Shown here: piece by piece, positions 1 to 55,531 of the stretch | Numbering within the stretch: position 1 is the stretch's first letter | Layout of the letters: each line of letters opens with the position of its first letter | Assembly (NCBI GenBank): GCA_017475485.1 | Contig: JAFVFO010000052.1 | Location: 6,437 to 70,436, forward strand | Length of the DNA stretch: 64,000 nt | Direction of reading: 5' to 3' | Source of the DNA: Candidatus Gastranaerophilales bacterium | GTDB lineage: Bacteria > Cyanobacteriota > Vampirovibrionia > Gastranaerophilales > Gastranaerophilaceae | Translations under genes and position numbers: made by a program | Notes under the pieces: generated by a model | Database searches by the model: none | What the model was told of the DNA's origin: nothing | Seen by the model: only the letters and a program-made list of their open reading frames with translations

Positions 1-557
1 AATGCAACCGCAATACCTGCACCAAGTTTAGAAGGGTCGTTTAAGTTCTGCATAACTTGAATTAAGCCTAATACGGCACCAATAATACCAAGTGTCGGAG
101 AATAACCGCCCGCAGATTCTAATACTTTTGCACCTGCATTAATTTTTTCCTGAATTTGCGATAATTGTGTTTCCATCATATCGCGCACTAATGTGGGGTC
201 AGCGCCGTCTGCAACAGCTTCAAGCCCAAGTTTTAACAACGGATGAGAAGCATTTTTTGCTTCTTTTTCCAAAACAATTACCCCTTCTTTCCTTGCTTTT
301 TGGGCATATCCTATAATTTCTTGGATTAAATCTTCAAATTTTGGCGGTTTTCCAAGATATACAACCCCGATACAGTGACCTGCGGTTTTGAAGTCTTCTA
401 TGGGAAAACTTAATACAACAGCACCTAATGTACCGCCCCCTACAATAAACAGAGCGGTTATTTGAAGCAACTGTCCTATATTTCCGCCTTCCATGGCTTG
501 CCCTGTTAAGATGAAGGCTTCGCCCAGAAAAGTACCAATTAATGCTGCGAAATCCAT
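1..557 (-). CDS. motA: Flagellar motor stator protein MotA (N-terminal ~185 aa; the rest runs off the window edge)
   Basis: Absent from the ORF track because it is open at the edge. My translation from ATG at 557..555 gives MDFAALIGTFLGEAFILTGQAMEGGNIGQLLQITALFIVGGGTLGAVVLSFP...LESAGGYSPTLGIIGAVLGLIQVMQNL. This is the typical MotA/TolQ/ExbB channel family layout. Confidence 0.85.
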   Translation of the reverse strand, partial: MDFAALIGTFLGEAFILTGQAMEGGNIGQLLQITALFIVGGGTLGAVVLSFPIEDFKTAGHCIGVVYLGKPPKFEDLIQEIIGYAQKARKEGVIVLEKEAKNASHPLLKLGLEAVADGADPTLVRDMMETQLSQIQEKINAGAKVLESAGGYSPTLGIIGAVLGLIQVMQNLNDPSKLGAGIAVA

Positions 558-30546: not shown

Positions 30547-31281
30547 CTAACTAAATATTTTAAATGATGAATCAATATTATCACCGATAATTTTTTCAAC
30601 GCTTTCTAATTCTGTTTCAATTGCGCTTCTTTCGGTTTCTAATTTGTTCAACTGTAATTCAAGTTTTTTATCTAAAGATTCGATTTGGCTTTGAACTTTA
30701 TCATATTCAGATTGCGCTGCAGCATCATCAGATTTATCATAAACTTCTGAAATCGCACCTGCTTCAAGTCCGTCCCAGCCTAATGTTTTGAATTCGTGAG
30801 TGCCTTTGTCTTCATCTTTTTCAAATGTTGCAAAATAATAAATACCGTCTTGAATTGCTTTTTGGAAGTTATCAACATCATCTAAATCGGGAGCTATCAT
30901 AAAATCATCTTTTGTAAATCCTTTTTCGGGATTTGCTTCAATCATTTGAACAATTTCATCTTCGCTTCCGACAATTATTTTGCTTCCGGATGATGATACC
31001 AAAAACATTTGTTTACCGGTTGTAGAAAGCCCTTCTGCCTGTTGATTCATAATACTTTTGTAATTTTGATATGTAACATCAACAGTTTCTCTTTCGGCAC
31101 CTGTATTAAAGGTATAAGTTAATTTGCGGTTAGACATTTTTTCATTGTACTCAGCAGAAGCTGCAGCAGATTTATCAGCTAACTGCAAACGTTCAAAGTT
31201 AATTCTTTGAGCTTGATATTCAACATTACTTTTTCTGGCCGTTAATTGCAAGAATCTTGCCTGGCTAGCTGAAAGCCCCAT
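30547..31281 (-). CDS. 244-aa protein of unknown function with helical N- and C-termini (MGLSASQARFLQLTARKSNVEYQ...)
   Basis: SD AAGGAGAA lies 6 nt upstream of the ATG, and a sigma28-type promoter is upstream. No signal peptide. The C-terminal heptad-like region is SLDKKLELQLNKLETERSAIETELESVEKII. Confidence 0.75.
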   Translation of the reverse strand: MGLSASQARFLQLTARKSNVEYQAQRINFERLQLADKSAAASAEYNEKMSNRKLTYTFNTGAERETVDVTYQNYKSIMNQQAEGLSTTGKQMFLVSSSGSKIIVGSEDEIVQMIEANPEKGFTKDDFMIAPDLDDVDNFQKAIQDGIYYFATFEKDEDKGTHEFKTLGWDGLEAGAISEVYDKSDDAAAQSEYDKVQSQIESLDKKLELQLNKLETERSAIETELESVEKIIGDNIDSSFKIFS

Positions 31282-31317: not shown

Positions 31318-31344
31318 TTATCGGTAATTTTGCTTTAAACTTTA
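31318..31344 (-). promoter_or_regulatory. Sigma28 (FliA)-type promoter TAAAGTTT-N11-ACCGATAA
   Basis: The minus strand reads cTAAAGTTTaaagcaaaattACCGATAAaaat. This matches the consensus TAAAGTTT-N11-GCCGATAA at 15 of 16 specified positions. It lies 37 nt upstream of the ATG at 31281. Confidence 0.7.
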
Positions 31345-36698: not shown

Positions 36699-36699
36699 A

Positions 36700-37905
36700 G
36701 TGTCGTTAAAAGAAAGGCTCTCAAATCAGACAAAAGCGCTTCAAATAGAGCAAAATTCGGAACATCCCGTATATTATCCTACAAGTGAAGTTTCTCAAGG
36801 AATAAATTCTTTAGGTGAAATAGATACTTTATTTGCAGATGATGAAATTAACTCTATATGCGTTATGGGGGCGAAAAATATCTATATAGAAAGGAAAGGC
36901 AAAAAAAGTAAAATTTCCCTTTCGTATAGGGATAACGTAAGATTAGAAAATATAATTAAAAAAAATGCGCAATTTCATGGATTGCAGTTTGATGAAAATC
37001 ATCCTTATATTGAATTTAACCATAAACAGGGAATTAATGTTTCTGCAACCCTTCCGCCCCTAAGCAGCGTTGCAACAATGATTGTTAAATGCTATAAAGA
37101 TAAATTTGCCTCTTTGAAAATGCTGGCGGAAAACCTTTGTTTGTCAAAAGAAATAGCACTTTTTATCGAGGCATTGGCAGCTTTAAAATTAAATATAATA
37201 ATTGCAGGTGAAAAAAATACCCTAAAAACAACCATTTTAAGTACGATTGCAAAAAATGTTGCGCAAAATGATAACTGCGTCATGATTGATTATGCTAATG
37301 AAGTGAAAATTGAAAATAGCAATATCGTTACTTATGATTTTAAAAACTATAACAATGAAAATCTTTTAGAACATATTATTTCATCTAATCCCGATAAAAT
37401 ATTTTTAAACGATTGCCCCGATTTATCGCGTTTTGATAAATATATCGAAAAAGGTTACAGGGGAATTTGCGCAACTTATAATTGCAACAGTCCGCTTGAT
37501 GTATTAAGTGATTTGTATTTGAAAAATGCGGATGTTGTTATTTTTGTTGAAAGAAAAGATCAAAGACGATTAATTTCTTCGATATCGCTTACTAAAGGGT
37601 CTGAACTTGAAAATATTTTTTATTTGAATGACAACTTGGAACATAATTCCTCAGGCATTGTTCCTGATTTTTATCAGGATATTGAAAAAAGTGCCCTTGC
37701 TCTTTCTGTGGCGATTTTTGAAGCAGATTACAAGCATACATATCATAAAACCCTTCAAAATGACCTTATAAATACCACATTAAAGAAAAATATTAATGCG
37801 GAAATTTTGAAAAAATTTAAAAAAGATCTTGATATTGAAAAAGAAGAAACATCTGAAGCGCATAAGGAAGATTTAGAACAAGAAAATAATAATGAAACTC
37901 TATGA
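36700..37905 (+). CDS. CpaF/TadA-like secretion-ATPase homolog with degenerate nucleotide-binding motifs
   Basis: The N-domain looks CpaF-like (INSICVMGAKNIYIERKGKKSKISL...FDENHPYIEFNHKQGINVSATLPPLS). The catalytic motifs differ from the usual forms:
- Walker A: AGEKNTLKTT instead of GGTGSGKTT
- Walker B: DKIFLNDCPD instead of DRIIVGEVRG
- His box: TYNCNS instead of TIHANS. Confidence 0.7.
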   Translation: MSLKERLSNQTKALQIEQNSEHPVYYPTSEVSQGINSLGEIDTLFADDEINSICVMGAKNIYIERKGKKSKISLSYRDNVRLENIIKKNAQFHGLQFDENHPYIEFNHKQGINVSATLPPLSSVATMIVKCYKDKFASLKMLAENLCLSKEIALFIEALAALKLNIIIAGEKNTLKTTILSTIAKNVAQNDNCVMIDYANEVKIENSNIVTYDFKNYNNENLLEHIISSNPDKIFLNDCPDLSRFDKYIEKGYRGICATYNCNSPLDVLSDLYLKNADVVIFVERKDQRRLISSISLTKGSELENIFYLNDNLEHNSSGIVPDFYQDIEKSALALSVAIFEADYKHTYHKTLQNDLINTTLKKNINAEILKKFKKDLDIEKEETSEAHKEDLEQENNNETL

Positions 37906-40414: not shown

Positions 40415-40717
40415 ATGCTTATAGATAAAATTCAAGATAAACAATATTTTTATACAGAATTTAAAAATGTTACAAAAGATTTATTGCCATGGCTTGAAAA
40501 TTTAGCATGGGAATGTCGTTGTAAAATTGAAAAAAAAGAGTGGAAAAGTAAGTATAATAACTATGTTATATATGATTACGAACCGTTTTGTTCTGACGGT
40601 TTTGAAATTAATATAACTTTATCAAGCAGAATGAGCGAATATCTTAATTTTGTAAGGTTTTTATATGAAAATAAGGTAAGAACTCTTATGTATTTAAAAA
40701 CCTGCTTATCCTTGTAG
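40415..40717 (+). CDS. Hypothetical 100-aa protein
   Basis: The ORF has SD-like agcgaggt upstream. It overlaps the radA 3' end by 12 nt in convergent orientation. No family recognised. Confidence 0.4.
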   Translation: MLIDKIQDKQYFYTEFKNVTKDLLPWLENLAWECRCKIEKKEWKSKYNNYVIYDYEPFCSDGFEINITLSSRMSEYLNFVRFLYENKVRTLMYLKTCLSL

Positions 40718-42100
40718 CGCACCTTTAATTGCTTGAGATACTTTTGAAACTTGTACAATTTCAAGATCTATATTTTTTATTTTTGAATTAATCTTTTCGC
40801 TTACTTGCGGAATAATTGCACGTTTGAAGCCTAATTTGTAGGCTTCAGACAATCTGCGTTCAATATTATCAACATATCTTACTTCACCTAAAAGCCCTAA
40901 TTCGCCTATTATAATAGTATCCTGTGTTATTGGGATATCGCGAACAGAGCTTATTATAGATAATGCTAAAGCTAAATCATAGCTTGGTTCAATTATATCA
41001 ATTCCGCCTACAACATTGACATAGACATCTTGTTTAGATAAATTCAGACCGATTTTCTTCTCTATAATTGCAATAACTTGTAATAATCTGTTATATTCCA
41101 GGCCTACTGCAACACGCCTTGGATTAGCATAATTAGTTGAACCGACAAGCGCTTGAATTTCATGAAGTAATATTCTGCTTCCTTCTAACGTTGCGACAAT
41201 AGCGCTTCCCGGGGCAGGTTCTTTAAAATCAAGAAACATTTGAGAAGGGGTGTTAATTTCAACAAGTCCTTCATCTTCCATTTTAAATACACCAACTTCA
41301 GATATTGTTCCGAAACGGTTTTTTATACATCTTAAAATTCTAAATTGCTTGTATTTATCTCCTTCAAAATTAATAACGCAATCAACCATGTGTTCTAAAA
41401 CCTTTGGGCCTGCAATATTTCCTTCTTTTGTAACATGGCCTATTATTACGGTTGTAATATTTCTTTGTTTTGCAATACGCATTAAAACATTTGTACACTC
41501 GCGAATTTGAGAAACGCTACCTGCGCCCGAAGCTATACTTGAACAAAAAACAGATTGAATACTATCTACAATTAAAAAATCAGGCTTAATTATATCAATT
41601 TGATTAATCACTTCATCTATGCAGGTTTGATTTGTTAAATATAGGCTATCAGGTTCTACTTCAAGTCTTTTTGCGCGCAATTTAACCTGATGAGGGCTTT
41701 CTTCTGCACAAATATAAAGTACTTTTAAGTTTTCGTTATTATATTCAATTTCGCAGATATTTTTTGTTGTTTGTAATACTAATGTAGATTTACCAATACC
41801 GGGGTCGCCTGCAAGCAAAGACAGCGAACCCTGCACAAAACCTCCGCCCAGAACTCTGTCTAATTCTTCAATATTTGTTTTAAATCTGATTTTTTCATCA
41901 AGTTCTATGTCTTTAATTTTAGATATTTTTGTTTCGCCTGATAATAAATTGGAAGGTTTTGAATTTTCCGATATTTTAACATTTGTTGTTATTTCTTCTA
42001 TAAACGTGCCAAATTGTGCGCATTCAGGACATCTTCCAAGATATGAAGCTGTTTCGTATCCGCAATTTTGACAAACCCATTTTGATTTTACTTTAGCCAT
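40706..42100 (-). CDS. radA: DNA repair protein RadA/Sms
   Basis: The N-terminal zinc ribbon is CQNCGYETASYLGRCPEC. Walker A is GDPGIGKST, the KNRFG motif is present, and a Lon-like C-domain follows. Confidence 0.95.
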   Translation of the reverse strand: MAKVKSKWVCQNCGYETASYLGRCPECAQFGTFIEEITTNVKISENSKPSNLLSGETKISKIKDIELDEKIRFKTNIEELDRVLGGGFVQGSLSLLAGDPGIGKSTLVLQTTKNICEIEYNNENLKVLYICAEESPHQVKLRAKRLEVEPDSLYLTNQTCIDEVINQIDIIKPDFLIVDSIQSVFCSSIASGAGSVSQIRECTNVLMRIAKQRNITTVIIGHVTKEGNIAGPKVLEHMVDCVINFEGDKYKQFRILRCIKNRFGTISEVGVFKMEDEGLVEINTPSQMFLDFKEPAPGSAIVATLEGSRILLHEIQALVGSTNYANPRRVAVGLEYNRLLQVIAIIEKKIGLNLSKQDVYVNVVGGIDIIEPSYDLALALSIISSVRDIPITQDTIIIGELGLLGEVRYVDNIERRLSEAYKLGFKRAIIPQVSEKINSKIKNIDLEIVQVSKVSQAIKGALQG

Positions 42101-42166
42101 AAAATAATTGTAGAATATTTTTTTAAATTAATTTGTAAATTTTTGTTAATACTTTTTCGATTTTTC

Positions 42167-42194
42167 TAAATTTTTCTAAAGCATTTGCCGATTA
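42167..42194 (+). promoter_or_regulatory. Sigma28-like promoter TAAA-N16-GCCGATTA
   Basis: Reads tcTAAAtttttctaaagcatttGCCGATTAcgc, 35 nt upstream of ATG 42229. It has one mismatch in the -10 element and a spacer one nt longer than consensus. Confidence 0.5.
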
Positions 42195-42228
42195 CGCTAC
42201 TATCTACATATAAAGAAAAGGGTGTGTT

Positions 42229-45200
42229 ATGGGACAAGAAAATGTTGGGAAATTTAAGCCTATTGAACTTATTATGAAGGGGTTGCAGGGTTCAACCGAT
42301 TTCAATATGCGCGCACAAAGTGACGAATCCACAATTAATATCTTTAGCGGAATTAAAGATATTATGGAGCAAAACGACAGTGTCATAGGTACGGAAGATT
42401 TATACACCCTGATTGATAATAAATTTGACTTAAATGATAACAACGACTTGATAAATTCTTTGTATGCAGTTGCCAAAATGGACGGTAATAAAGACGCTAT
42501 TTCGCTTGCTGACTTTGGTATGTATGAAGCAAGCTATGAAATTTTGGCGTCTATTAACGGTGAAAATTCAGATAATATAACAACAGATAATATTGTAAAA
42601 GTTGCAAATGTGTTAAATGCAACAGACCAAGAAGGTAAAACACAGGAAGAATTGTATAAAGCAATTATAGAAGCATTAGAACTCGGTGAAGATTATAATT
42701 CCGAAGATTTAAAAGCCGTAATCGAGGCTATAGCTAAAAAAGTATCAGATTCTAATAATTCATTCGGTAATGTAATCCGCAAAGATGATTTTACAAAAAT
42801 GGGCAGTGAAGTTATTGAGGCCTATTCAAATTCTGAAAATGACAGAGATGCCGTAAAATCAGAACTTAAACCCATTAAAGAAGATGAATTACCTGATTGT
42901 TTCAAAGGCAAAAGAAATGATGAAGTAATGCATGACGCCAATAACGAAGGCTTCTGGGTCGTAACGGAACAGTGGAGCGGTAACGAAAATAACGATAATG
43001 CCATGAATTCTTTAAGCAGGGTTATAGATAACGTCTATGGTGAATTAGACCCCGCACTTAAAGCTGCATTAAGCCAAGAAATTCAAGATTTGGAAGATAA
43101 TGAAGGTTTCTTTAATAACTCTGAAAGGACTTCATTGCTTCATAATGACGCATTAAAATTAGTGGAATTAAATTCGGATTTCTACAGAAGACATCCTGAA
43201 CTATCTCCTGCTTCCGCTTATTTAGCGGAAGGTGAAATTCCTGATTATGAAGGTGCTGCGTCAGGCTCAGGTGCTGCGTCAGGCTCAGGTGCTGTGTCAG
43301 GTTCGGGCGGTGCGTCAGGAACAGGCAGAACATCAGGCTCGGGTAGAACATCAGGCTCGGGCAGAACATCAGGCTCGGGCGGTGCGTCAGGAACAGGCGG
43401 CGCTACACCTTCCGGCGGAGCTGATGATGAACCCATAAGCCCTGAATTAACGGTTGGTAATTATGAAGGCAGTTCGCCAAGCGAATGGACAATAAATGAA
43501 GATACAGGAGTAATTACAAACGGCTATGGTGAAACCATGAAAGAAGTAACCATAGAAGATGATTCCTTAATTCTTCTTATAGATAGCAATTTAGATTTCC
43601 AAGGCGGAACTTACGGTATATATTATGAAAAAACCGAAGTATCCGAAGGAAAATTTGAACAAGGGAAACCTCTTGGCTACTTTATAAAAGCGCAAGACGG
43701 TACAATGAATTATTATGAATTTGAAGAAGATTCCAAAAAAAGAATACCGGGTAATGTCGTAAATTCTGAAGGAACTCTTGCAACACAAGACGGTACGGTT
43801 TTAAAAGAAACAGATTTAGCGACATTGAAACTTCAAGGATATAAAATTGAAGATATCGAAGGAAATGAAAATGAAAAACGAATTATAGATATAAGAACAG
43901 GCGAAGTTGCGGGTATAGCTCAATCTTATAAAGACGGCTATAACTCTTATTATCTGTATGATAATTCTGTTCCTAAATTAGATTTTGCACCGGCACAAGA
44001 GCCTGAAACAGAACCAAGTGAAGGTGATGATAAGGGTGATGAAGGTGCTGTGCCTTCCGTTGATAAATTCACGGTAGATAGCGAAACAGGAAAAGCTACA
44101 ACTAAATATGGCGAAAAATTATCTCCCGTAGAAGTTGATGAATCAAAAATAAATATGACTTCAATAGGTGATGAATCTTACGGCGTATATTATGAAAAAA
44201 TGCCCGGAAGCCTTAATAATGGTAAAGTTTTAGGCTATTATACAAAAGATGAAACAGGCAAGAAAATCTTCTATGCTTTTGACGAAGACAGCCCCAGAAG
44301 ACTTCCTTCGGGATTTAGTGAAAATAACGGCGTTATTGCTGATTCCAACGGAAATAAAGCTACGGAATCAAGTTGTTATGATGTTTCAAAACTTGTTACC
44401 GAACAAGGTTACAAACTGGAACAAGGTGCAAATCCTACAAACAGAAAAATTTATGACGCGCAAGGAAACATTGCAGGCTTCATCAACTATAGTGATGACG
44501 GGTATAATTCATACTATTTATATGAAACTCCCGTTAAAGAAGCTGATGTTCCCGCAGAAGTATTATCTCCCGGAAGCGTTGCACCGACAGAACCCCAAGA
44601 AGGCGGCAGCGAAGGTGATGAAGGTGATGATAAAGATGAAACTCTGCCTTCAAACTTTGGCTCGGGATTGCCTGCAGGCTGGACTGTTGATAAAGAAAAC
44701 GGCACGGTTACAACAGATTACGGCGAAACAATAAAATTAACAACCATAGAAAATGACAGAAGCATTATCAGAACGCAAAGCTCTGCAAATGCTAATTTTG
44801 GTACATATTATGCAAATGAAGGTGATATTTTTGGCGGCAAACCGCTTGGTTTCTATGTAAAAGACGCGCAAGGAAAATATACATATTACGCATTTACACA
44901 AGAATCTTCTTCGAGAATTCCGCAAGGAGCGGCAGAAAATGCGCAAGACGGCACATTGTTTGTTATAGAAAATAACAGAACTATTCAGGAAAGCAGTTGC
45001 CATGAAGTAAATGAAAAAGGTTATCATTTGGAATCAGGCGATAAAAATCCTAAAAATATTCTTGATAAAGACGGAAATATTATGGGTATTTATCAAAAAT
45101 ATGATGACGGATATTTGTCATATTATTTATACGATAAGGCAATTTCCGCTACAACCCAGTTTGGAATAGGCCTGCCTGATTATTGGACAAGCGATAAAGA

Positions 45201-46740
45201 ATCTAATACCGTAAAAACAAATTACAATGAATTCTTAGAAATGCTTGATGAAGATCCGACCGTTACATTAATGTATCATAATCAGGACAATCCGAATTTC
45301 GGCGTATATTATACAGATAACCCAAGAACTATTCCTGCAGGTTTCTATGTAAAAGACGTACAAGACGGTATTGAAACTACTACATACTACGCATATAAAC
45401 AATATAGCCCGAGAAGAACCCCCACTTCTCAAGGCTATATAAAAGGTGAAGACGGTACTTTAACTGCACCAAACGGCAGATATGTAAATGAACTTGGGGT
45501 TGATGAACTCCAAGAAAAAGGCCTTATTCCAAGGGGCGGTAAATTATACGACAGCGCAAACAATGAAGTAGGTGCTTATGTTGAATATCCTGACGGATAC
45601 CGTCAATATTACCAATATGATAAATATAATGAAAATGTTGAAACACAAGGAATTTCAGCGGCATATAAATCCGCATTAAATACATTTGAAAGTACATATT
45701 TTAATGCTGACGGTACTTTAAATGCAAATGCAACCCCTGAAGCACTTGCAAGCCAATTAAATTCCATAATGAATAATACGGAATTAACCGCAAAAGAAAA
45801 AGCTCAATTTATAACCGATTTAAATTCCAAATACGGCACACAATTATCGGGTAAGGTAAATTATTCCGCTCAAAACTTTGAAAGCATGATTGCACAATTA
45901 TCGCCCGCTATTGTAACTAATCAAAACGGTATGAATACTGATGATTTGATTTCTGTAATCGAAGCATATAAATTATTTACCGGAAATGATTTATCAAATA
46001 TCGGAAAAGATTTAAAAAATCTTAAAACAGCTAACGGAACAAGGCTCGATAGCTTCCTGAACAATATGACTTCCGTTTTGAACGCAGCTTCTTCAAGTCA
46101 GATAAAACAATTAAACGATATCTTTAATTTTGTAGAAACCATTCAACAAAATTATTCAAATTCGGAAGAAACAACAAAACTGCAGGCTTTGTTCTCTGCT
46201 GTTTATAAAACATCTCAGCAAGATCAAGCCTATATTCAACAAAATAATATTTCTTATAAAAAATCCCCATTCTTTAAATCTTGGAACAGCATAAAAGATA
46301 TTGCAAGAAACGGCTATTCAAATACCCAAGAAGCAAGAGCATATATTATTTCAACTTGCGGCGGTGATATTAATAAATTAATAAGCGATTATAGAACAGG
46401 CGCTTGGGGCGATAATTCGAGCCAAGAAAAAGAATTGCCAATGCTATTCTTATTATTCTTAGGTGAAGACCTTGATGTAATAACAGGTAAAGCCCCTGCG
46501 GCAACCGCTACAACTGCGGCAGCTGCAACAACCACAACAACCACAACAACAGCGGCTGCAGCCGGAAACAATGGCTCGGGAGCAATTGCAGACGGAGTTT
46601 ATACGGTTAACGGTAAAACATATTACGCAAGAGGCGGTAAAGTTTATTATGCCACAACAAACGGATATGGTGCACCGACAGAAAACCCCGCAAGCCAAGA
46701 TATTTATGACGCTATAATTGCCCAACAATCAAATTCTTAA
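42229..46740 (+). CDS. Giant (1503 aa) modular repeat protein, unknown function, no signal peptide
   Basis: A single long ORF with SD AAAGGGTGTG. Its parts are an N-terminal module shared with the next gene, a (GAASGS/GRTSGS) linker, four repeats of ~160-185 aa, a helical C-terminal region, and an Ala/Thr linker with a short YY-rich tail. Confidence 0.85.
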   Translation: MGQENVGKFKPIELIMKGLQGSTDFNMRAQSDESTINIFSGIKDIMEQNDSVIGTEDLYTLIDNKFDLNDNNDLINSLYAVAKMDGNKDAISLADFGMYEASYEILASINGENSDNITTDNIVKVANVLNATDQEGKTQEELYKAIIEALELGEDYNSEDLKAVIEAIAKKVSDSNNSFGNVIRKDDFTKMGSEVIEAYSNSENDRDAVKSELKPIKEDELPDCFKGKRNDEVMHDANNEGFWVVTEQWSGNENNDNAMNSLSRVIDNVYGELDPALKAALSQEIQDLEDNEGFFNNSERTSLLHNDALKLVELNSDFYRRHPELSPASAYLAEGEIPDYEGAASGSGAASGSGAVSGSGGASGTGRTSGSGRTSGSGRTSGSGGASGTGGATPSGGADDEPISPELTVGNYEGSSPSEWTINEDTGVITNGYGETMKEVTIEDDSLILLIDSNLDFQGGTYGIYYEKTEVSEGKFEQGKPLGYFIKAQDGTMNYYEFEEDSKKRIPGNVVNSEGTLATQDGTVLKETDLATLKLQGYKIEDIEGNENEKRIIDIRTGEVAGIAQSYKDGYNSYYLYDNSVPKLDFAPAQEPETEPSEGDDKGDEGAVPSVDKFTVDSETGKATTKYGEKLSPVEVDESKINMTSIGDESYGVYYEKMPGSLNNGKVLGYYTKDETGKKIFYAFDEDSPRRLPSGFSENNGVIADSNGNKATESSCYDVSKLVTEQGYKLEQGANPTNRKIYDAQGNIAGFINYSDDGYNSYYLYETPVKEADVPAEVLSPGSVAPTEPQEGGSEGDEGDDKDETLPSNFGSGLPAGWTVDKENGTVTTDYGETIKLTTIENDRSIIRTQSSANANFGTYYANEGDIFGGKPLGFYVKDAQGKYTYYAFTQESSSRIPQGAAENAQDGTLFVIENNRTIQESSCHEVNEKGYHLESGDKNPKNILDKDGNIMGIYQKYDDGYLSYYLYDKAISATTQFGIGLPDYWTSDKESNTVKTNYNEFLEMLDEDPTVTLMYHNQDNPNFGVYYTDNPRTIPAGFYVKDVQDGIETTTYYAYKQYSPRRTPTSQGYIKGEDGTLTAPNGRYVNELGVDELQEKGLIPRGGKLYDSANNEVGAYVEYPDGYRQYYQYDKYNENVETQGISAAYKSALNTFESTYFNADGTLNANATPEALASQLNSIMNNTELTAKEKAQFITDLNSKYGTQLSGKVNYSAQNFESMIAQLSPAIVTNQNGMNTDDLISVIEAYKLFTGNDLSNIGKDLKNLKTANGTRLDSFLNNMTSVLNAASSSQIKQLNDIFNFVETIQQNYSNSEETTKLQALFSAVYKTSQQDQAYIQQNNISYKKSPFFKSWNSIKDIARNGYSNTQEARAYIISTCGGDINKLISDYRTGAWGDNSSQEKELPMLFLLFLGEDLDVITGKAPAATATTAAAATTTTTTTTAAAAGNNGSGAIADGVYTVNGKTYYARGGKVYYATTNGYGAPTENPASQDIYDAIIAQQSNS
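43252..43395 (+). repeat. In-frame 18-nt tandem repeat x8 (GAASGS/GRTSGS linker)
   Basis: Reads ggtgctgcgtcaggctca x2, then the variants ggtgctgtgtcaggttcg and ggcggtgcgtcaggaaca. These are followed by ggcagaacatcaggctcg, ggtagaacatcaggctcg and ggcagaacatcaggctcg, then ggcggtgcgtcaggaaca again. Confidence 0.9.
43441..45625 (+). repeat. Four divergent protein-level repeats (~160-185 aa each) inside the 1503-aa protein
   Basis: Each unit has the same pattern: W-T-x-[DN]-x-[ED]-x-G-x-[VI]-T-[TN]-x-YGE, then FG[VT]YY, G[KA]xLG[YF]Y[TV]K[DA], xYYAFxxxSxxR[IL]P, GY[KH]LE, D-x-x-GN[IE]-[AM]G and DGY[NLR]SYY[LQ]YD. Approximate unit bounds are 43441-43965, 44062-44530, 44640-45135 and 45150-45625. 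Confidence 0.8.
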
Positions 46741-46797
46741 ATGGTATAAATGTTAATTAATTTCTGTAAAGTTTTGTTAAAATATTACCAAAAATAT

Positions 46798-46824
46798 TAA
46801 ATATTATAGTAAATATGCCGATAA
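46798..46824 (+). promoter_or_regulatory. Sigma28 (FliA)-type promoter TAAA-N15-GCCGATAA
   Basis: Reads atatTAAAtattatagtaaatatGCCGATAAacat. Both elements and the spacing match the consensus exactly. It lies 36 nt upstream of ATG 46861. Confidence 0.7.
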
Positions 46825-46860
46825 ACATAGTAACCAATAAAGAAGAAAAAGGGGTGTATA

Positions 46861-49800
46861 ATGAGCACAGGCGGCATAGGCGCTACAACAGGAAAAGATT
46901 TACTTTTTGGAGCTTTAACAAGGCAAAGAAAAGACATTAGCCAAGAAGATTTTGAAAAGTATATTCATGATTACTTTTATAGCGGTGAAAACGGTCAATT
47001 TATTAACCATACGGGCGAAACCTTAGCCCTTGATATGGCAAGATATTTTGAGTTGGAAGAAAATGACCAGGCATTTTTAGATGCAATTACAGAAGTTGCC
47101 TCTTATGATATGAATGGTGAAACATTATCCGAAGCAGATCTAACCATGGAACGCTATGACGGCGGCTATACAGACGGCGCAATGGATACACTCTATTTTG
47201 CTTCCGCACAAGAACATCTTTCAAGTGATGAAACACGCGCATTGTTCGATAATGTATTTTATGATGAAGAAGGAAAGTTTGTTGAACAAAGCGCAGATGA
47301 CGTATATAGCAAATTAATTGAGGCTTATCAAATTACCGATACTGCTAAAGCGGATAATTTGAAATCTATGGTTTATGATATTGCACGTCAAGACGGCAAT
47401 ATGTCAAACTTCTCGGAAGCTGATATTACAAAAATTGATGAATTATCAAGAAGCGCTCATGTAACCGATGGTAATGTTAATGTACCGCCTATATTTAAAG
47501 GTGCAGGTGTAGCAGAAAATCTTGAAATTAACGGAAACGGTCAATTTGTTGTTCAAACTACAAAATGGGATGACGCGCAAGGCGACGATCCTACAGTATT
47601 AAATACAATGAATAAAATCATTACACAAATGTACGGTGTAGATTTTAATTCTCCTGAAGGACAAATTATTTATGCAGCTATTAAAGAAGCAAACCCTGAC
47701 TTCGTAAGAGAAAATCCTATTGACCCTGTAACGGGCGAATCTCTTGAAGGCTGGAGTATCAATAGCGGCAGAAAGATTATTCTTCCGGTTGTTAGTGAAC
47801 TAAATAAAACAGATTCAGATAAACAAGAAATCGGACAAAACTTCTACGGCTCTAAGGCTCAAGATGCAGTATATAAAAATGCTGACGGCAAATGGGTAAT
47901 TAAAACAGAAGAATGGACCGAAGCAGACAGAAATAAAACTGAAAAATTAAATACCGTATGCAATATTTTATCAAATGTTTATGGTGTTGATTACAATTCA
48001 GAAGAAGGTCGTGCAATATTCCAAGCATTATCCGAAGCAAATCCGGGCTTCTTTACACTTGATAGCAACGGTGAACCAAGCTCATTAAAACATGGTGAAG
48101 AACTTACTTTAATTGACGCTAAAGAAGTACTTGGCAACAGATATTCAAACGGAACAGTTGTTACAAAACAAGAAATAGCTCAAACCTTCACCGGTGCACA
48201 AGCAGGTAATAAAATATACAAAAATGCTGACGGTCAATGGGTTGCAATGAGCGAAGGCTGGGATGATAATGACCCTGACAGAATGAACAAAACAACATCA
48301 GCAGGTTCTATCCTTCAAAACTTGTATAACGTTGATTACAATACTCCCGAAGGCCAAAAGATATTTAACGCATTGGTTGACGCTAATCCGGGTCTGTTCA
48401 AGTTTGATGTATATGGCGAACCTATAACATTGGCAGTAGGTCAAGAAATTAAATTAGTTGATCCTCAAACTGCCCTGAGCGGTGACGGAGCTGTAAGCAG
48501 CCAAAGAACAGACGCTATTGCCAGAGGTCAATCACACCTATTTGGCGGTTTGGGTTCTGACGCTGTATATCAAAAACCAGACGGTCAATATGCAATCACT
48601 ACGGAACAATGGGTTGAAGGTGACCAGCATAACAATGACAAATTAAATACTCCATATAATATATTAATGAATGTATATGGCTTGAATTACTACAGTGAAG
48701 AAGGCCAAAAAGTATTCCAAGAATTGGTTAAAAATAATCCTGATACATTTGAATTTAATGAAAAAGGCGAACCAATTAATATGAAATTAGGAACAGAATT
48801 AATTCTTACCGATCCTAATACAATACTTGGCGCAAACTACACACAAAACCATACAAACCCTGCATTAGCAGCACCGGCTGACGGTAAAGCAGCATTCTTT
48901 GCAAACGGTAAAGATACAAGCAAGCTAATTAACGATAACGGTGATTACTATGTAGTATCAGAACCATTCAGCTACACAAGCGGGGCAGATGTTAATGATA
49001 CATTAGGCAAGATATTTATGAATATGTATGGCGTTAACTTCTGGTCACCGGAAGGACAAAGATTGTATCAACTCTTAAAGGCTGATCCTCAAAATGCTGA
49101 GTTCTTCCAATGTGATAATCCGGACGCAATACCTGAAAATGTAAAATTACACTTAAATGCAGATGTAACCGGAGTTTTAGGTAACTTAAGCGGTAGTGCA
49201 GTTCAAGGACTATATAGTAATAAAGGTTCAAGCACAGATTTAACTTCTGCTTCAATATTATATGGTGATAAAGGTTCAGGCGCGGGTTCAACTTCTGCTT
49301 CAACACTATATAGTGCAAATCCGAAGGTTACAACGACACCGGCCGGAACATCTGCATCTCAGATAACTCCCGCACCTCAAGCAACCCCTGCACCTCAGGC
49401 AACACAGACACCGACAGCAACACCGACAGCAGCACCGACAGCAGCACCAACGGCTGCACCAACGGCTGCACCAACGGTAGCACCAACGGCTGCACCAACG
49501 GCAGCACCAACGGCAGCACCTACAGCTACACCAACGGCAGCACCGACAGCAGCACCGACAGCGCCACCAACAACAACACCAACAGTACCGCAAGGACACA
49601 CTGCAGAAGAATATTTACAAGCAGCAAACAATCGTCACTTCACTCCTGCAGTAGGTACGGCAGCATATCAATTGATAGCATCAGGCCAAGACTTCAGCAG
49701 GGCGCACAACACCGGTTCATTAGGAGATTACTTCTATATAGGTGATGATAAGAGTGTTATCTATGACGGACAAGGTAATGTTGTTTCAACAGATGGTGGT

Positions 49801-49881
49801 GCTCATATCAGAAATACATTTAACTTTGCTGAAAGAGATGAACACGGCGGCCCTCAATTTGATCCGGCATACTTAGCATAA
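46861..49881 (+). CDS. Giant (1006 aa) modular repeat protein, unknown function, no signal peptide
   Basis: Long ORF with SD AAAAGGGGTG. Its parts are the shared N-terminal module, five ~115-aa repeats, Ser/Gly-rich segments, a (PTAA)n linker and a ~100-aa C-terminal domain. Confidence 0.85.
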   Translation: MSTGGIGATTGKDLLFGALTRQRKDISQEDFEKYIHDYFYSGENGQFINHTGETLALDMARYFELEENDQAFLDAITEVASYDMNGETLSEADLTMERYDGGYTDGAMDTLYFASAQEHLSSDETRALFDNVFYDEEGKFVEQSADDVYSKLIEAYQITDTAKADNLKSMVYDIARQDGNMSNFSEADITKIDELSRSAHVTDGNVNVPPIFKGAGVAENLEINGNGQFVVQTTKWDDAQGDDPTVLNTMNKIITQMYGVDFNSPEGQIIYAAIKEANPDFVRENPIDPVTGESLEGWSINSGRKIILPVVSELNKTDSDKQEIGQNFYGSKAQDAVYKNADGKWVIKTEEWTEADRNKTEKLNTVCNILSNVYGVDYNSEEGRAIFQALSEANPGFFTLDSNGEPSSLKHGEELTLIDAKEVLGNRYSNGTVVTKQEIAQTFTGAQAGNKIYKNADGQWVAMSEGWDDNDPDRMNKTTSAGSILQNLYNVDYNTPEGQKIFNALVDANPGLFKFDVYGEPITLAVGQEIKLVDPQTALSGDGAVSSQRTDAIARGQSHLFGGLGSDAVYQKPDGQYAITTEQWVEGDQHNNDKLNTPYNILMNVYGLNYYSEEGQKVFQELVKNNPDTFEFNEKGEPINMKLGTELILTDPNTILGANYTQNHTNPALAAPADGKAAFFANGKDTSKLINDNGDYYVVSEPFSYTSGADVNDTLGKIFMNMYGVNFWSPEGQRLYQLLKADPQNAEFFQCDNPDAIPENVKLHLNADVTGVLGNLSGSAVQGLYSNKGSSTDLTSASILYGDKGSGAGSTSASTLYSANPKVTTTPAGTSASQITPAPQATPAPQATQTPTATPTAAPTAAPTAAPTAAPTVAPTAAPTAAPTAAPTATPTAAPTAAPTAPPTTTPTVPQGHTAEEYLQAANNRHFTPAVGTAAYQLIASGQDFSRAHNTGSLGDYFYIGDDKSVIYDGQGNVVSTDGGAHIRNTFNFAERDEHGGPQFDPAYLA
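47500..49190 (+). repeat. Five ~115-aa protein repeats (period ~345 nt) with a LysM-like sequence pattern
   Basis: The conserved core recurs at 47630, 47978, 48323, 48672 and 49021. It reads [VIL]Y[GN][VL][DN][FY]x[ST][PE]EG[QR]xI[FY]xALxxANP, then G[EQT]E[LI]xL[IVT]D. Each core is preceded by Y[KQ][NK][AP]DG[KQ][WY] and an acidic W-containing strand. Confidence 0.8.
49411..49566 (+). repeat. In-frame 12-nt tandem repeat x~13 ((PTAA)n Pro/Thr/Ala linker)
   Basis: ccgacagcagca / ccaacggctgca / ccaacggcagca units were read directly. The wider Pro/Thr-rich tract spans about 49366-49590. Confidence 0.9.
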
Positions 49882-49910
49882 AACAAGAATAAACATTCAA
49901 TAACATATTT

Positions 49911-49936
49911 AAAGCCCCTTTGAAGGGGCTTTTATT
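49911..49936 (+). terminator. Rho-independent terminator after the 1006-aa gene
   Basis: AAAGCCCCTT-TG-AAGGGGCTTT followed by TATTTT. Confidence 0.8.
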
Positions 49937-51313
49937 TTAGTTTTCTTCTTTTATTGACAAGGTAATGAAGGCTGAAATTATAAGCATTAATGCACCGAAC
50001 ATAAACGCATAATCCCAGTGGTTATTTGTGTAGCCTGCCATATCATAAGTGGCTGAATTGATGAACCAAGCTAACAATGTGCAAACTAATACCTGAGGAG
50101 CTGAAATGAAAATGTTAAATATTCCCATTGCAGAACCTTCAGTACCTTCTTTAATATATTTAGATAACATAGCAAAAGGTAATGCCAAAGTTGAAGCCCA
50201 GCCGATACCCGCTAAACCCATTGCCGCTAAAACAACGTATGGATTAGGCATAAATGCCATTAATAAATATGATATAGCCATAGTAACCAATGATAGTGCA
50301 TGAACTTTTTTATTGCCGTTTTTTTCCGCCATTTTAGCAATAGGAATTGCAATTATAAAACAGATTAAATTAAATAATGCAAAACAAATGCTTGAAAAGT
50401 TTTGAGCTTCCGCTTGTTTAGAAGCAAAAGTATCAACAATATTTTGAGCTAAACCTGCAGTATTCGGAATTTGATAAATAATATGAACAACAAATTGAGT
50501 GAAAAATATTAATAAACTCATTAAACCAATCCAAGTGAAGAATTGAATAATGCAGATTTTACCTACTTCGGGGCTTGTGTTTAAAAATTCTTTAACATTT
50601 TCAAGGAAGGATTTTGACGCGGTTTTTTTAGCTTCTAATTTTTTTTCTGCTAATACTTCTTTGTTTGGGATGACTTCTCTGAAGGTAATACAAGTCCAAA
50701 GCATGCCTAAAACAAAAGCTACGCCTGCCATTGTAAATTGAGCGTCAACCGACATTTGGTATTTAAATGCCCATTTTAAAAACGGTGCAGCACCTGCTGC
50801 CACAACAGAACCTAAGCCGATTGCAAAACTTAAAAATGAATTTGCAATAGCATGTTGATTTTTTGGAATGTTATCGGGAACTAATGCTCTATACGGGCCT
50901 TGTGCCGCATTAACACACGCGTCAATCATCCAAATGAATATTGCGGCAATAAATAATGCCAGCCATGCGGGATGATTTTGTCCGAATAACTCTGATATAA
51001 ATTGACTTTTAGGTAATAAAATTAAACCTAATGCCCCAAATAAAGCACCAAAGAACAGATAAGGTATTCTTCTTCCAAAACGGGTAAAGGTGTTATCTGA
51101 TAAAGCCCCTATTATCGGCTGTACCACAATACCTGTAACCGGCCCTGCAAGCCAAATTAAACCGTATAATAACGGGCTTGCACCAAGCGATTCCGTCAGC
51201 GGGCCTGATAAAATAATTCTCATCTGCCATGCGAATTGAAGCCCGAAAAAGCCTATACAAAAGTTTAAAAGCTGTACCGGGCTGAATTTTTTTAAAGCAT
51301 TATCATCTGCCAT
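49937..51313 (-). CDS. MFS transporter, glycoside/sucrose-H+ symporter-like (GPH/SLC45-type)
   Basis: A 12-TM protein. The loop 2-3 motif GALSDNTFTRFGRRIPY is typical of sucrose/GPH-type MFS carriers. Confidence 0.8.
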   Translation of the reverse strand: MADDNALKKFSPVQLLNFCIGFFGLQFAWQMRIILSGPLTESLGASPLLYGLIWLAGPVTGIVVQPIIGALSDNTFTRFGRRIPYLFFGALFGALGLILLPKSQFISELFGQNHPAWLALFIAAIFIWMIDACVNAAQGPYRALVPDNIPKNQHAIANSFLSFAIGLGSVVAAGAAPFLKWAFKYQMSVDAQFTMAGVAFVLGMLWTCITFREVIPNKEVLAEKKLEAKKTASKSFLENVKEFLNTSPEVGKICIIQFFTWIGLMSLLIFFTQFVVHIIYQIPNTAGLAQNIVDTFASKQAEAQNFSSICFALFNLICFIIAIPIAKMAEKNGNKKVHALSLVTMAISYLLMAFMPNPYVVLAAMGLAGIGWASTLALPFAMLSKYIKEGTEGSAMGIFNIFISAPQVLVCTLLAWFINSATYDMAGYTNNHWDYAFMFGALMLIISAFITLSIKEEN

Positions 51314-51379
51314 ATTTTTCTCCTCAAAAGTATGTATAATAATTTTACATTAATATTTTTTAATTGTAAAATTATACTT

Positions 51380-53044
51380 ATGAGAATTAAAGTATTACTA
51401 GGTTTATTTTTAAGCATATTGTTATTCAATATTGCAATGGCAAATGATGAAAAAACAGTTGTCAGAGTAGGGATTTCAAATCAAAACTTCTCAAATTGGG
51501 AACATAAAAGCGCAGATTTTATATCTGAAAATATAATTAAAATAATAGATATGTCGCAAAATTCGCCAATAGAAGAAGTTAAGGCAAATACTCCCGTAAA
51601 TATAACTTTTGCGGAAGGTGTTTATTCAATTTCATTGAATAACGCAGTTAAATATAGAAATCTTCAAGGCCCTTTGATATTATCATCTAATGCCCCGATC
51701 GGAATAGTTAATTTAAACAGAAAAGGTACTCCCGCAAAATATAAAGGCATGATTGAAATAAGAAATTTAAAGACAAATCAGGGCTTTAATATTATTAATG
51801 TTTTAGATATGGAAAATTACCTAAAAGGTGTTGTACCAAATGAAATGCCTGTAGGGTTCGGAATAGAAGCTCTTAAAGCGCAGGCGGTTGCAGCAAGGAA
51901 TTATGCAAACAATGCTTCAATTTCGCCTAATTATGATGTGGTTGATTCTACTGCTTCTCAGGTTTATTACGGAGTAAATTCATACAGAGATATTTCAAAT
52001 GAAGCTGTATTAAAAACAAAAGGGATATATGCCCTTTATAAAAATAAGCCGATAACAGCGCTTTATTTTTCGACTTCCCCCGGAATTACGGATGATTGGG
52101 ATGATGTTTTTTCGGATAATTTTAACTGGGGAAGCCATCCTTATCTGAAGCCAAAATATGATATGGAAGGGCAAAAAGCCCTTAAATCAGAGCGTGATGT
52201 GGAAGAATTTTACACAAGAAAAGATAACGGGTTTGATACAAATTCTCCGAAATTTCGCTGGAATATTGAGTTTACGCGCGAAGAATTAGAACAAGTATTA
52301 ACCCAAACCCTTTTAAATCAATCTTCTACAGGGCTTGTGTATCCGAAATATGACGGCAATACACCCATTACGGGCTTGAGAGAAATTAAAGCAACGCACA
52401 GGACTAATTCAGGCAAAATTACGGAATTGGTAATAATTTGTGATAACGGTGAATTTAAAATTAAAAAAGAATTAACAATAAGACGAATTCTAAAGAAAAA
52501 CGGTGCAATGCTTCCGAGTGCTAACTTCTTTGTGCAGACAGACGGTTCTTTATTGGAAAAGAAAATATTCGGTATTTTTGATGTTGATAATAAATATCCT
52601 AAAACATTTATTTTAACAGGGGGCGGTTTCGGGCATGGTGTTGGTATGAGCCAGTTTGGTGCAAGTGCAATGGCAAAAACGGGCAAAAAATATCCTGAAA
52701 TTTTAAATCATTATTATACGGATATTGAACTTTCAACAATTCCTAAAACCGTTTATTATAATGATTATAATGTTTTTTATAATACGGAATTTTATTATGA
52801 GCCGAATATTTATGGCAGTGTGTATTTGTTTATAAATAATCAAAAATATGCAAATGAATTTAATTTTAAAATAAATAATTTTGAATTTAATGATACTTCA
52901 AGTTTTGCGCATAACAGATTAATAAAAATAAATATTTCCCAATATCTGCATGAAGGCTTAAACACAATCAGTTTTGCACCATTGAGCGCAAAAAACAAAG
53001 GTAAAACTATAACTTATCAAGTGGAATTTGTAAATGGAAGATAA
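51380..53044 (+). CDS. SpoIID/LytB-domain protein (secreted)
   Basis: Signal peptide MRIKVLLGLFLSILLFNIAMA. Contains NVLDMENYLKGVVPNEMPVGFGIEALKAQAVAARNYA and GGGFGHGVGMSQFGA. The track start at 51332 is an upstream extension. Confidence 0.85.
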   Translation: MRIKVLLGLFLSILLFNIAMANDEKTVVRVGISNQNFSNWEHKSADFISENIIKIIDMSQNSPIEEVKANTPVNITFAEGVYSISLNNAVKYRNLQGPLILSSNAPIGIVNLNRKGTPAKYKGMIEIRNLKTNQGFNIINVLDMENYLKGVVPNEMPVGFGIEALKAQAVAARNYANNASISPNYDVVDSTASQVYYGVNSYRDISNEAVLKTKGIYALYKNKPITALYFSTSPGITDDWDDVFSDNFNWGSHPYLKPKYDMEGQKALKSERDVEEFYTRKDNGFDTNSPKFRWNIEFTREELEQVLTQTLLNQSSTGLVYPKYDGNTPITGLREIKATHRTNSGKITELVIICDNGEFKIKKELTIRRILKKNGAMLPSANFFVQTDGSLLEKKIFGIFDVDNKYPKTFILTGGGFGHGVGMSQFGASAMAKTGKKYPEILNHYYTDIELSTIPKTVYYNDYNVFYNTEFYYEPNIYGSVYLFINNQKYANEFNFKINNFEFNDTSSFAHNRLIKINISQYLHEGLNTISFAPLSAKNKGKTITYQVEFVNGR

Positions 53045-55527: not shown

Positions 55528-55531
55528 CTAT

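Follow-up and report, generated by a model that had tools for sequence, protein, structure and literature searches.

The stretch of DNA analysed here (the window) comprises 64,000 nucleotides of contig JAFVFO010000052.1 from a Candidatus Gastranaerophilales bacterium, and the subject of this report is a pair of tandem genes within it, p1 and p2, which code for two very large proteins (Table 1). Both open reading frames (ORFs) lie exactly where a preliminary description of this DNA had placed them, and each begins at the first start codon following an in-frame stop. RadA, which is encoded divergently from p1, shares 77-83% identity with RadA of ~20 gut Gastranaerophilales metagenome-assembled genomes (MAGs; Melainabacteria/Vampirovibrionia) and ~57-67% identity with RadA of the remainder of the 80 loci recovered, nearly all of which belong to the same order. 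The comparison set comprised 82 loci from such relatives (designated by L-numbers) together with the window, amounting to 1.405 Mb of which 9.6% is intergenic.

Table 1. Coordinates of p1, p2, their modules and promoters, and other features of the window.
Feature	Position	Strand	Remarks
5' part of motA (flagellar stator)	1..557	-	E = 3.7e-37 to solved MotA structures
244-aa acidic ORF	30547..31281	-	starts MGLSASQARFLQLTARKSNVEYQ; 36 nt behind the third promoter; no signal peptide; helical N- and C-terminal ends
Third sigma-28-type promoter in the window	31318..31344	-	near-perfect TAAAGTTT-N11-ACCGATAA, preceded by TTGTAAAcaaaTGTAAC (TTGTAAA/TGTAAC repeat); position weight matrix (PWM) score 22.7
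radA	40706..42100	-	Pfam; divergent from p1; left border of variable slot; synteny in L014 and L082
Upstream element of p1	42132..42149	+	TTTGTAAA-TTT-TTGTTAA (TGTAAA-type direct repeat); ~20 nt 5' of -35 box
Sigma-28 (FliA)-type promoter of p1	42167..42194	+	TAAA (42167-42170)-N16-GCCGATTA (42187-42194); PWM score 19.3
p1	42229..46740	+	1503 aa, isoelectric point (pI) 4.36; no signal peptide, no transmembrane segment
p1 N-terminal module (aa 1-205)	42229..42843	+	polar, partly disordered tip, then four helix-loop-helix units; motif VAxxDxNxxxLSxADF
p1 single 'A' repeat (aa 228-335)	42910..43233	+	homologous to the five p2 A repeats; blastp 2.7e-9
p1 Gly/Ser-rich linker (aa 345-400)	43261..43428	+
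p1 four 'B' repeats, ~160-190 aa each (aa 400-1135)	43426..45633	+	all-beta; AlphaFold2 (AF2) predicted local distance difference test (pLDDT) 79.1, 13 strands
p1 helical C-terminal domain (aa 1136-1440)	45634..46548	+	only homologs P0001 (42% identity) and P0003
p1 Thr/Ala linker and short Tyr-rich beta-hairpin-like tail	46549..46737	+	no CW_binding match
Upstream element of p2	46764..46780	+	CTGTAAA-GTTT-TGTTAA
Sigma-28 (FliA)-type promoter of p2	46798..46824	+	TAAA (46798-46801)-N15-GCCGATAA (46817-46824); exact consensus; PWM score 20.1
p2	46861..49881	+	1006 aa, pI 4.38; no signal peptide, no transmembrane segment; paralog of p1 in N-terminal module and A repeat
p2 N-terminal module (aa 1-213)	46861..47499	+	two copies of VA/IAxxDxNxxxxSEADL motif
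p2 five 'A' repeats, ~115 aa each (aa 214-812)	47500..49296	+	no LysM or other Pfam match
p2 Ser/Thr, then Pro/Thr/Ala (APTAAPT) linker	49297..49635	+	yields only low-complexity PDB matches
p2 small C-terminal domain (aa 926-1006)	49636..49878	+
Strong intrinsic terminator hairpin (9 bp, 5 GC pairs)	49911..49932	.	between p2 and the convergent MFS gene
MFS transporter gene	49937..51313	-	Pfam; right border of variable slot; convergent with p2

Both proteins are very acidic, poor in cysteine and devoid of any transmembrane-like segment. Their N-termini had been described as polar and lacking a signal peptide, and the hydropathy values bear this out, since the maximum over 15 residues reaches only 0.29 for p1 and 0.79 for p2 as against 2-3 for genuine signal peptides in the data set; neither a Sec nor a Tat signal is present. 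The Shine-Dalgarno contexts of the two genes (AAAAGGGTGTGTT-ATG for p1 and AAAAGGGGTGTATA-ATG for p2) are similar, as previously reported, but the string quoted for them at the time was wrong. The Gly/Ser and Pro/Thr/Ala linkers mentioned in the same description are present, and they separate a small number of well-delimited modules. In the AF2 model of p1, the N-terminal module folds into four helix-(short strand)-helix units (aa ~35-205), with pLDDT values of ~73-90 over residues 40-170 and of less than 50 at residues 1-7 and 24-35. A Foldseek search with this model returned no significant neighbour, the top-ranking structures being EF-hand proteins with E >= 0.46; the conserved loop of the module, D.N...[LI]S.[AE]D, falls one residue short of the canonical EF-hand loop and has no EF-hand match in Pfam. 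The A repeat is modelled with low confidence within p1 and its best PDB profile match has E = 0.44. As for the B repeat, it has no sequence match in the PDB, and Foldseek found no PDB fold neighbour for its AF2 model. The payloads of p1 and p2, beta-rich and alpha/beta repeats combined with Gly/Ser and Pro/Thr linkers, suggest a binding or adhesin-like role.

Searches of Pfam and NCBIfam with p1 and p2 gave nothing above noise (no LysM, CW_binding, SH3, RTX, LXG or EF-hand match), and PDB sequence and profile searches yielded low-complexity matches only, so the earlier statement that neither protein belongs to a characterised family still stands. Indeed, p1 and p2 are near-orphans for which only four partial relatives were found, two of them in a single MAG. 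Neither full-length p2 nor the A-repeat profile retrieved a homolog from 5.8 billion protein clusters, the full-length search having probably been swamped by the Pro/Thr linker; an exact look-up of the p2 sequence returned no record and a scan of genome contigs with the p2 repeats returned nothing. The C-terminal 1104 residues of p1 (residues 400-1503) had 3 matches among 1.84 billion representative proteins. The profile of the N-terminal module matched only two partial proteins, P0002 and P0004, both encoded by MAG GCA_017467685.1. There, the gene for P0004 diverges from radA in the same arrangement as p1, and the gene for P0002 is preceded by one ending in a p1-like C-terminal domain, which indicates that tandem paralogs occur in that genome too. 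Scans of metagenome and viral contigs and a tblastn search of phages were likewise empty, and a phage or mobile-element origin is thus not supported. Our survey of the literature found no report on such proteins in Gastranaerophilales.

Each gene is preceded by a string resembling the promoters recognised by the sigma-28 factor FliA, for which we used the geometry TAAA(GTTT) at -35, a spacer of N15(16) and GCCGATAA at -10 on the coding strand. In E. coli, GCCGATAA occurs in documented FliA promoters (PMC4183435). The boxes are present as first described, the promoter of p2 being exact and that of p1 having one mismatch to the consensus and a spacer one nt longer. Their -10 boxes end 34 nt (p1) and 36 nt (p2) ahead of the ATG, and their PWM scores fall within the range of the other 10 sites of the matrix. 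An ortholog of p1 in a relative (L081) retains TAAA-N16-GCCGAATA. A third promoter of this type precedes a 244-aa ORF which has no family match in Pfam, NCBIfam or the PDB and no homolog in the 82 loci. Within the window only, the excess of such strings is modest: TAAA-N14-17-GCCGAT was observed 3 times versus 1.04 expected, 3 occurrences being reached in 8 of 100 shuffles, and the third of these sites (56824) is intragenic. No terminator was found between p1 and p2, and p2 may therefore additionally be transcribed by read-through from the p1 promoter.

The association becomes much stronger across the comparison set. Scanning the 1.405 Mb with the pattern TAA[AG]-N15-16-NCCGA[AT][AT]A gave 13 intergenic and 34 coding matches, that is, a 3.6-fold higher density in intergenic DNA. 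Nine of the 13 intergenic matches sit ahead of giant ORFs of 1006-1737 aa, at a distance of 27-40 nt; the genomes concerned have a RadA with only 58-83% identity to the one in the window. The motif was found ahead of 8 of the 21 ORFs of at least 900 aa but ahead of only 2 of the 1073 ORFs of 150-899 aa (Fisher p = 1.8e-13), and these two are a truncated giant and the 244-aa ORF of the window. On this scale, unlike in the window alone, the motif clearly exceeds what random AT-rich DNA would provide. The giants so marked include proteins without detectable sequence similarity to p1 or p2. Variant boxes stand ahead of two more giants (TAAAGTTT-N11-GCCGATAC in L075 and TAAAGAAA-N11-ATCGATAA in L074), and several sites are almost perfect matches to the extended enterobacterial consensus TAAAGTTT-N11-GCCGATAA. 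A PWM of 12 sites adds a 590-aa CHAP protein (L008), a 293-aa protein (L024), a short ORF (L068) and an apparently non-coding unit (L061). One match, in L005, proved to be the end of a tRNA gene and was excluded. The 1026-aa proteins encoded beside radA in L006 and L048 were also set apart from the family, as they have N-termini that look Clp-N-like by eye and different upstream regions without the motif.

Conservation of the upstream regions follows the same boxes. We aligned five orthologous or paralogous regions (those of p1, p2, P0002, P0004 and a gene for a 1232-aa protein in L014); the -35 box (T.AA), the -10 box (CGA within GCCGA) and an upstream block, GTAAAT.TTTGT.AA, are invariant while spacers and flanks diverge. 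Over 16 promoters, the 84 nt upstream of the -35 box contain TGTA[AG] 24 times versus 4.0 expected, an enrichment of ~6-fold, although some of these promoters are homologous and hence non-independent.

Two further features of these promoter regions were noted. The promoters of four toxin-type members (L073 3740-3800, L038 ~4920-4960, L045 ~3160-3200 and L074 ~3480-3520) have in common a ~30-nt element, TATATACTAC(T/A)TTTGTAGAAATT.AAATCAT, which includes the palindrome CTAC-N4-GTAG. Situated ~80-100 nt upstream of the -10 box, this element could serve a regulator or form a tandem sigma-70-like promoter (TTGTAG-N17-aTaAAT). No sigma-28-type site in the data set scores higher than TAAAGTTT-N12-GCCGATAA in L061 (~4640-4751, minus strand), which is not followed by an ORF but by ~80 nt that close with a GC-rich hairpin and a run of T; this unit is a candidate for a small RNA dependent on FliA.

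The motif-marked proteins share general properties with p1 and p2. Those analysed have pI values of 4.1-4.5 and at most 6 cysteines, and none of the motif-bearing giants carries a hydrophobic N-terminal signal segment. Profile-profile alignment by hhalign of the p1/p2 N-terminal region with the N-termini of L014p, L039p and L045p gave a probability of 94.2% (pairwise E = 1.2e-7 over 69 columns), centred on the motif [IV]A..D.[DN]...[LI][ST].[AE]DL. The payloads differ between members. A signal-less protein of 1184 aa from a roe deer gut MAG (L073p) ends in an ADP-ribosyltransferase (ART) exoenzyme domain (PF03496, E = 3e-17) that extends to its last residues, and its gene is followed by a convergent gene for a 432-aa ADP-ribosylglycohydrolase (ARH; PF03747, E = 5e-76); judging from these domains, the two (L073 3889-8738) look like a toxin-immunity pair. 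The L008 protein has a CHAP/NlpC-P60 domain at its C-terminus, L075p contains ABC1 kinase-like and ApoL-like regions and L045p holds a HELGH motif. L045p corresponds to the N-terminal two-thirds of L039p joined to an insert (the HELGH region) and to the C-terminal domain of L038p, which reveals module shuffling between genomes. Tandem pairs recur in L039 and L041. The toxin-type members each possess one strongly hydrophobic Gly/Ala-rich region, which p1 and p2 lack. This family is new, and may be characterised as an undescribed, lineage-wide, sigma-28-promoter-marked and polymorphic effector-like one. The preliminary description had called for a survey of homologs and synteny; it is the pairing of promoter and giant gene that recurs in many Gastranaerophilales genomes, whereas p1 and p2 themselves are near-orphan.

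The chromosomal position of p1 and p2 also fits a family with changing members. The slot between radA and the MFS transporter gene is occupied by p1 and p2 in the window, by the 1232-aa toxin-type family member in L014, where the order is MFS gene, giant gene and radA as in the window, and by an ortholog of p1 in L082. GC content is ~32% over the window, with 0.36-0.42 in the p1-p2 slot (42001-50000) and 0.28-0.34 in the flanks. The higher GC content of the slot and its differing occupants would fit a hot spot of recombination, or may simply reflect encoded proteins rich in Gly, Ala, Pro and Thr.

A genuine sigma factor of the FliA/WhiG family is encoded by relatives. FliA/SigD homologs were detected by tblastn in nine loci and are 35-41% identical to E. 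coli FliA and B. subtilis SigD. Those of L005 (RadA 82% identical to that of the window) and L061 exceeded the curated cut-offs, the scores being 238 and 229 bits with the FliA_WhiG model TIGR02479 (cut-off 189.6) and 218 and 226 with the FliA model NF005413 (cut-off 201). A second sigma gene, located beside a motif-bearing gene in L024, is RpoD-like and not FliA. Inside the 64-kb window none of fliA, flgM and the flagellar export genes was found, and motA, correctly identified in the preliminary description, is the only flagellar gene there. Genome surveys have reported complete flagellar gene sets in ~25% of Gastranaerophilales genomes, while the others retain flhB, fliI and flgG, "postulated" to serve extracellular secretion (bioRxiv 10.64898/2026.04.24.720558; PMC4040986).

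Taken as a whole, the best explanation is that p1 and p2 are FliA-transcribed tandem paralogs of a polymorphic family of exported effectors specific to Gastranaerophilales, an explanation to which we give about an even chance of being right in all its parts. Under this model, each gene would be transcribed by RNA polymerase carrying a FliA/WhiG factor from a promoter TAAA(GTTT)-N15/16-(G)CCGA(T/A)(A/T)A, which is separated from the start codon by 27-40 nt, and a further regulator probably binds the conserved TGTAAA-repeat element found another 20-40 nt upstream. Family members join a polar, partly disordered N-terminus, often accompanied by the helical N-terminal module, to interchangeable payloads, and the N-terminal region would direct export independently of Sec, most likely through the flagellar type III export apparatus. 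The parts of this model are not equally firm. Sigma-28-type transcription together with membership in the family is probable on the sequence evidence. We lean slightly towards export by one route or another, an idea strengthened by the toxin domains of the relatives. Use of a flagellar type III secretion system (T3SS) in particular, which we rate as less likely than not, is something we infer from the link to sigma-28, the conservation of N-termini and not of C-termini, the genome surveys mentioned above and a precedent in Lysobacter; the flagellar apparatus is favoured because it is the only exporter recognising N-termini independently of signal peptides that is reported to be widely retained in the lineage. 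Finally, p1 and p2 would most simply be binding or adhesin-like members of the family, given their beta-rich repeats and long linkers and the lack of a toxin or immunity partner.

Several observations weigh against this explanation. The flagellin genes of three relatives (L016, L017 and L034), intended as a positive control, have no CGA anywhere in their intergenic regions. Instead, they share a sigma-70-like TTC(C)TAAC-N6-TATAAT (L016 6978-7200, L017 ~6990-7209, L034 ~7960-8178), followed by a 5' untranslated region of ~150 nt whose AAGGA-loop hairpin, immediately ahead of the Shine-Dalgarno sequence, resembles a CsrA site by eye, and from these sequences flagellin in the three genomes appears not to be FliA-dependent. 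The window motA has no sigma-28-type motif either; a candidate inside rlmN (CCCGATAA at 742-749) was rejected for want of a TAAA at the right distance. The enrichment upstream of flagellin and motility genes envisaged in the preliminary description was thus not seen in the three flagellins and the motA examined, and the regulon looks uncoupled from filament synthesis. In addition, fliA itself (L005 8047-8871, L061 11511-12335 and eight other loci) has radA, tpiA, fab genes or a tRNA gene as its direct neighbours and is not part of a flagellar or chemotaxis operon. Hence, of the original proposal that p1 and p2 are FliA-regulon proteins, the genuine-looking sigma-28-type promoters and the FliA/WhiG factor of relatives remain, while it is doubtful that they belong to the flagellar late regulon if this is strictly defined. 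Sigma-28 dependence does not imply export in any case, as many sigma-28-dependent proteins elsewhere are not exported, and a folded, conserved N-terminal module would be atypical for flagellar substrates and resembles the trafficking domains of polymorphic toxins (PMC3482391). The hhalign E value is a pairwise one, and a plain HMM search was marginal (domain E = 0.0014 for L014p and 0.06 for L041p); some of the promoters counted are mutually homologous, so that the statistics overstate their independence. Lastly, Pfam, NCBIfam and PDB searches found no toxin domain in p1 and p2, no hydrophobic region was seen in them and no immunity-like gene adjoins them, their neighbours being radA and the MFS transporter gene. 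They are counted among effectors on account of their promoters, their N-terminal module and their general properties as proteins.

The alternative that survives best, though we consider it rather unlikely, retains the FliA-dependent promoters and has the proteins leave the cell by a non-flagellar route, be it an undescribed system recognising the module, an ABC exporter similar to a type I secretion system (T1SS), vesicles or lysis. The apparent uncoupling of the regulon from flagellum assembly and the housekeeping surroundings of fliA in relatives fit such a route, as does the folded N-terminal module, which is closer to the trafficking domains of polymorphic toxins delivered by type VI and type VII secretion systems (T6SS, T7SS) than to the short, variable signals of flagellar substrates (PMC3482391). 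Acidic, cysteine-poor proteins would suit a T1SS as well. However, no marker of a T1SS, T6SS or T7SS and no RTX repeat was detected in the proteins or in the Pfam-scanned genes of the window, and the LXG model (PF04740) matched neither p1 and p2 nor the other giants scanned. A C-terminal T1SS signal is hard to reconcile with C-termini that are hypervariable and, in L073p, occupied by the toxin domain up to the last residues, and it is the flagellar export genes that the literature reports as widely retained in the order.

Retention of the products in or on the producing cell, for instance as cytoplasmic scaffolds, motility or chemotaxis structures or envelope-associated proteins under FliA control, seems improbable. 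Many sigma-28-dependent genes of model bacteria do encode proteins that are not exported, as in the FliA regulon of E. coli (PMC4183435), neither p1 nor p2 has a toxin domain or a neighbouring immunity gene, and EF-hand-like modules, although the match here is weak, are common inside cells. Yet an ART with its cognate glycohydrolase, a peptidoglycan-cleaving CHAP domain and ApoL-like regions make sense only outside the producer cytoplasm. Linkers of the Pro/Thr and Gly/Ser kinds, repeats rich in beta structure, fast diversification and the shuffling of modules are also what one typically sees in proteins that are secreted or exposed at the surface.

That the sigma-28-like strings arose by chance in AT-rich DNA or were passively inherited by duplication, with transcription relying on the housekeeping sigma factor, is very improbable. 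TAAA is common in DNA of 32% GC, the excess in the window is small, p1, p2 and their orthologs share the ancestry of their 5' regions, and sigma-70-like arrangements (TTGTAG/TTGTAA-N17-aTaAAT) can be drawn upstream of several members. Against this, the association with giant ORFs holds across genera and extends to proteins of no detectable similarity to p1 and p2; boxes are kept while their surroundings diverge, the distance to the start codon is held at 27-40 nt and several sites are near-perfect to the extended consensus. Equally improbable is the earlier view of p1 and p2 as wall-anchored proteins made of LysM-like and choline- or cell-wall-binding-like repeats, for although the A repeat looks LysM-like by eye (L..I...YGV....., then L.LG..L.L) and the tails of both proteins carry GxxYY hairpin-like motifs, LysM (PF01476), CW_binding_1/2 and SH3 models gave no match at E <= 1 in Pfam and none in NCBIfam, PDB profile searches were empty, the B-repeat model has no PDB fold neighbour and the A repeat is of low confidence in the p1 model.

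Returning to p1 and p2 as members of an exported, FliA-transcribed family, such a system has partial counterparts elsewhere. Sigma-28-dependent, non-flagellar cargo of the flagellar T3SS includes FspA, FlaC and Cia of Campylobacter jejuni, YplA of Yersinia enterocolitica and XlpA of Xenorhabdus. The Gastranaerophilales proteins resemble these in their FliA-type promoter, absence of a Sec signal, polar N-terminus and non-structural nature, toxins included. They differ in that the known examples are single proteins of small to medium size without a shared N-terminal domain, whereas here a multi-copy modular family of 1000-1700 aa is concerned whose export is putative; moreover, flagellin shares the sigma-28 promoter in the known systems but not in the flagellins tested here. 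Toxic proteins are exported through a residual flagellar T3SS by flagellum-less Lysobacter (L. enzymogenes; PMC7688988), and many Gastranaerophilales similarly keep only the flagellar export core (bioRxiv 10.64898/2026.04.24.720558).

Polymorphic toxin systems are known to employ several delivery routes, such as LXG proteins with the T7SS, Rhs-PAAR with the T6SS, CdiA with the type V secretion system (T5SS), MafB and others (Zhang, Aravind et al. 2012, PMC3482391). A flagellar route is missing from the list given there, apart from a speculation on an RNase encoded in firmicute flagellar operons (PMC3482391). The present family is like these systems in combining a conserved N-terminal region with recombining C-terminal payloads (ART, peptidase/amidase, kinase-like), an adjoining immunity-type gene (ARH by ART), tandem arrays, variable slots and rapid divergence. 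It is unlike them in its sigma-28-type promoters and in that none of the known trafficking domains was detected, and in p1 and p2 themselves neither a toxin nor an immunity component can be recognised.

Giant repeat adhesins of Gram-negative bacteria, such as LapA, SiiE and the RTX adhesins, are secreted by T1SSs. They are comparable to p1 and p2 in being very large, acidic and cysteine-poor, with tandem beta-rich repeats, possible Ca-binding motifs and no N-terminal signal peptide. In contrast, p1 and p2 have neither RTX/HemolysinCabind repeats nor Big- or Cadherin-type domains according to Pfam and NCBIfam, their family is conserved at the N-terminus with hypervariable C-termini, and no gene for an ABC, membrane fusion (MFP) or TolC component adjoins them. 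A further parallel comes from the FliA/WhiG regulons of chlamydiae and actinobacteria, in which sigma factors of the sigma-28 family are used without flagella and control development or late-stage genes. There too, FliA/WhiG drives non-flagellar genes from promoters resembling TAAA-N15-GCCGATAA and the sigma gene lies outside a flagellar operon, but these regulons contain no polymorphic family of giant effector-like proteins, and the organism studied here still has motA.

The remaining genes of the window with a Pfam family are housekeeping genes, and an Rfam scan of the window found one tRNA and nothing else. Some of its other genes deserve mention on their own account. A gene for a ParA/MinD-like AAA_31 ATPase (CpaE/TadZ-like) adjoins one for a T2SSE-family ATPase (CpaF-like) at 35511-37905, ~5 kb upstream of p1-p2, a pair that suggests a Tad or type IV pilus-like system. 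Although the lineage is not known to sporulate, a SpoIID-domain protein is encoded at 51332-53044, and a Cache-HAMP-SpoIIE(PP2C)-HATPase_c_2 fusion at 55520-57793 combines an RsbU-like sensor phosphatase with an anti-sigma-type kinase domain. The ORF listed for release factor RF2 (prfB; 31741-32574, minus strand) is short of the first 60 residues of the PCRF domain, which would be explained by a putative programmed +1 frameshift of the kind usual for this gene.

Gastranaerophilales are widespread, uncultured gut relatives of cyanobacteria, and what is known of their biology comes from genomes alone. The partial flagellar gene set kept by most of them is puzzling; secretion has been postulated as its role, with no cargo proposed before. 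The p1-p2 locus and ~15 related genes provide a concrete candidate cargo with features by which it is easily recognised, namely a polar N-terminus encoded behind a FliA-type promoter with a TGTAAA repeat upstream and, for many members, the N-terminal module they have in common. In its most far-reaching and frankly speculative form, which we regard as possible but not likely, the hypothesis would make the flagellar export apparatus of Gastranaerophilales a dedicated secretion system for giant polymorphic effectors, including in the many species that are without the rest of the flagellum. It would deliver toxins provided with immunity partners as well as adhesin-like proteins such as p1 and p2 by means of a new N-terminal trafficking module, with FliA uncoupled from flagellin and assisted by a regulator binding the TGTAAA repeat. 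If true, polymorphic toxins would gain a flagellum-derived route beside the delivery systems already known for them, and a sigma-28 regulon would have been rewired from motility to interactions with other bacteria or the host. Even if export followed another route, these genes would represent a new, large and fast-evolving set of toxin-like and adhesin-like proteins in a human-associated lineage.

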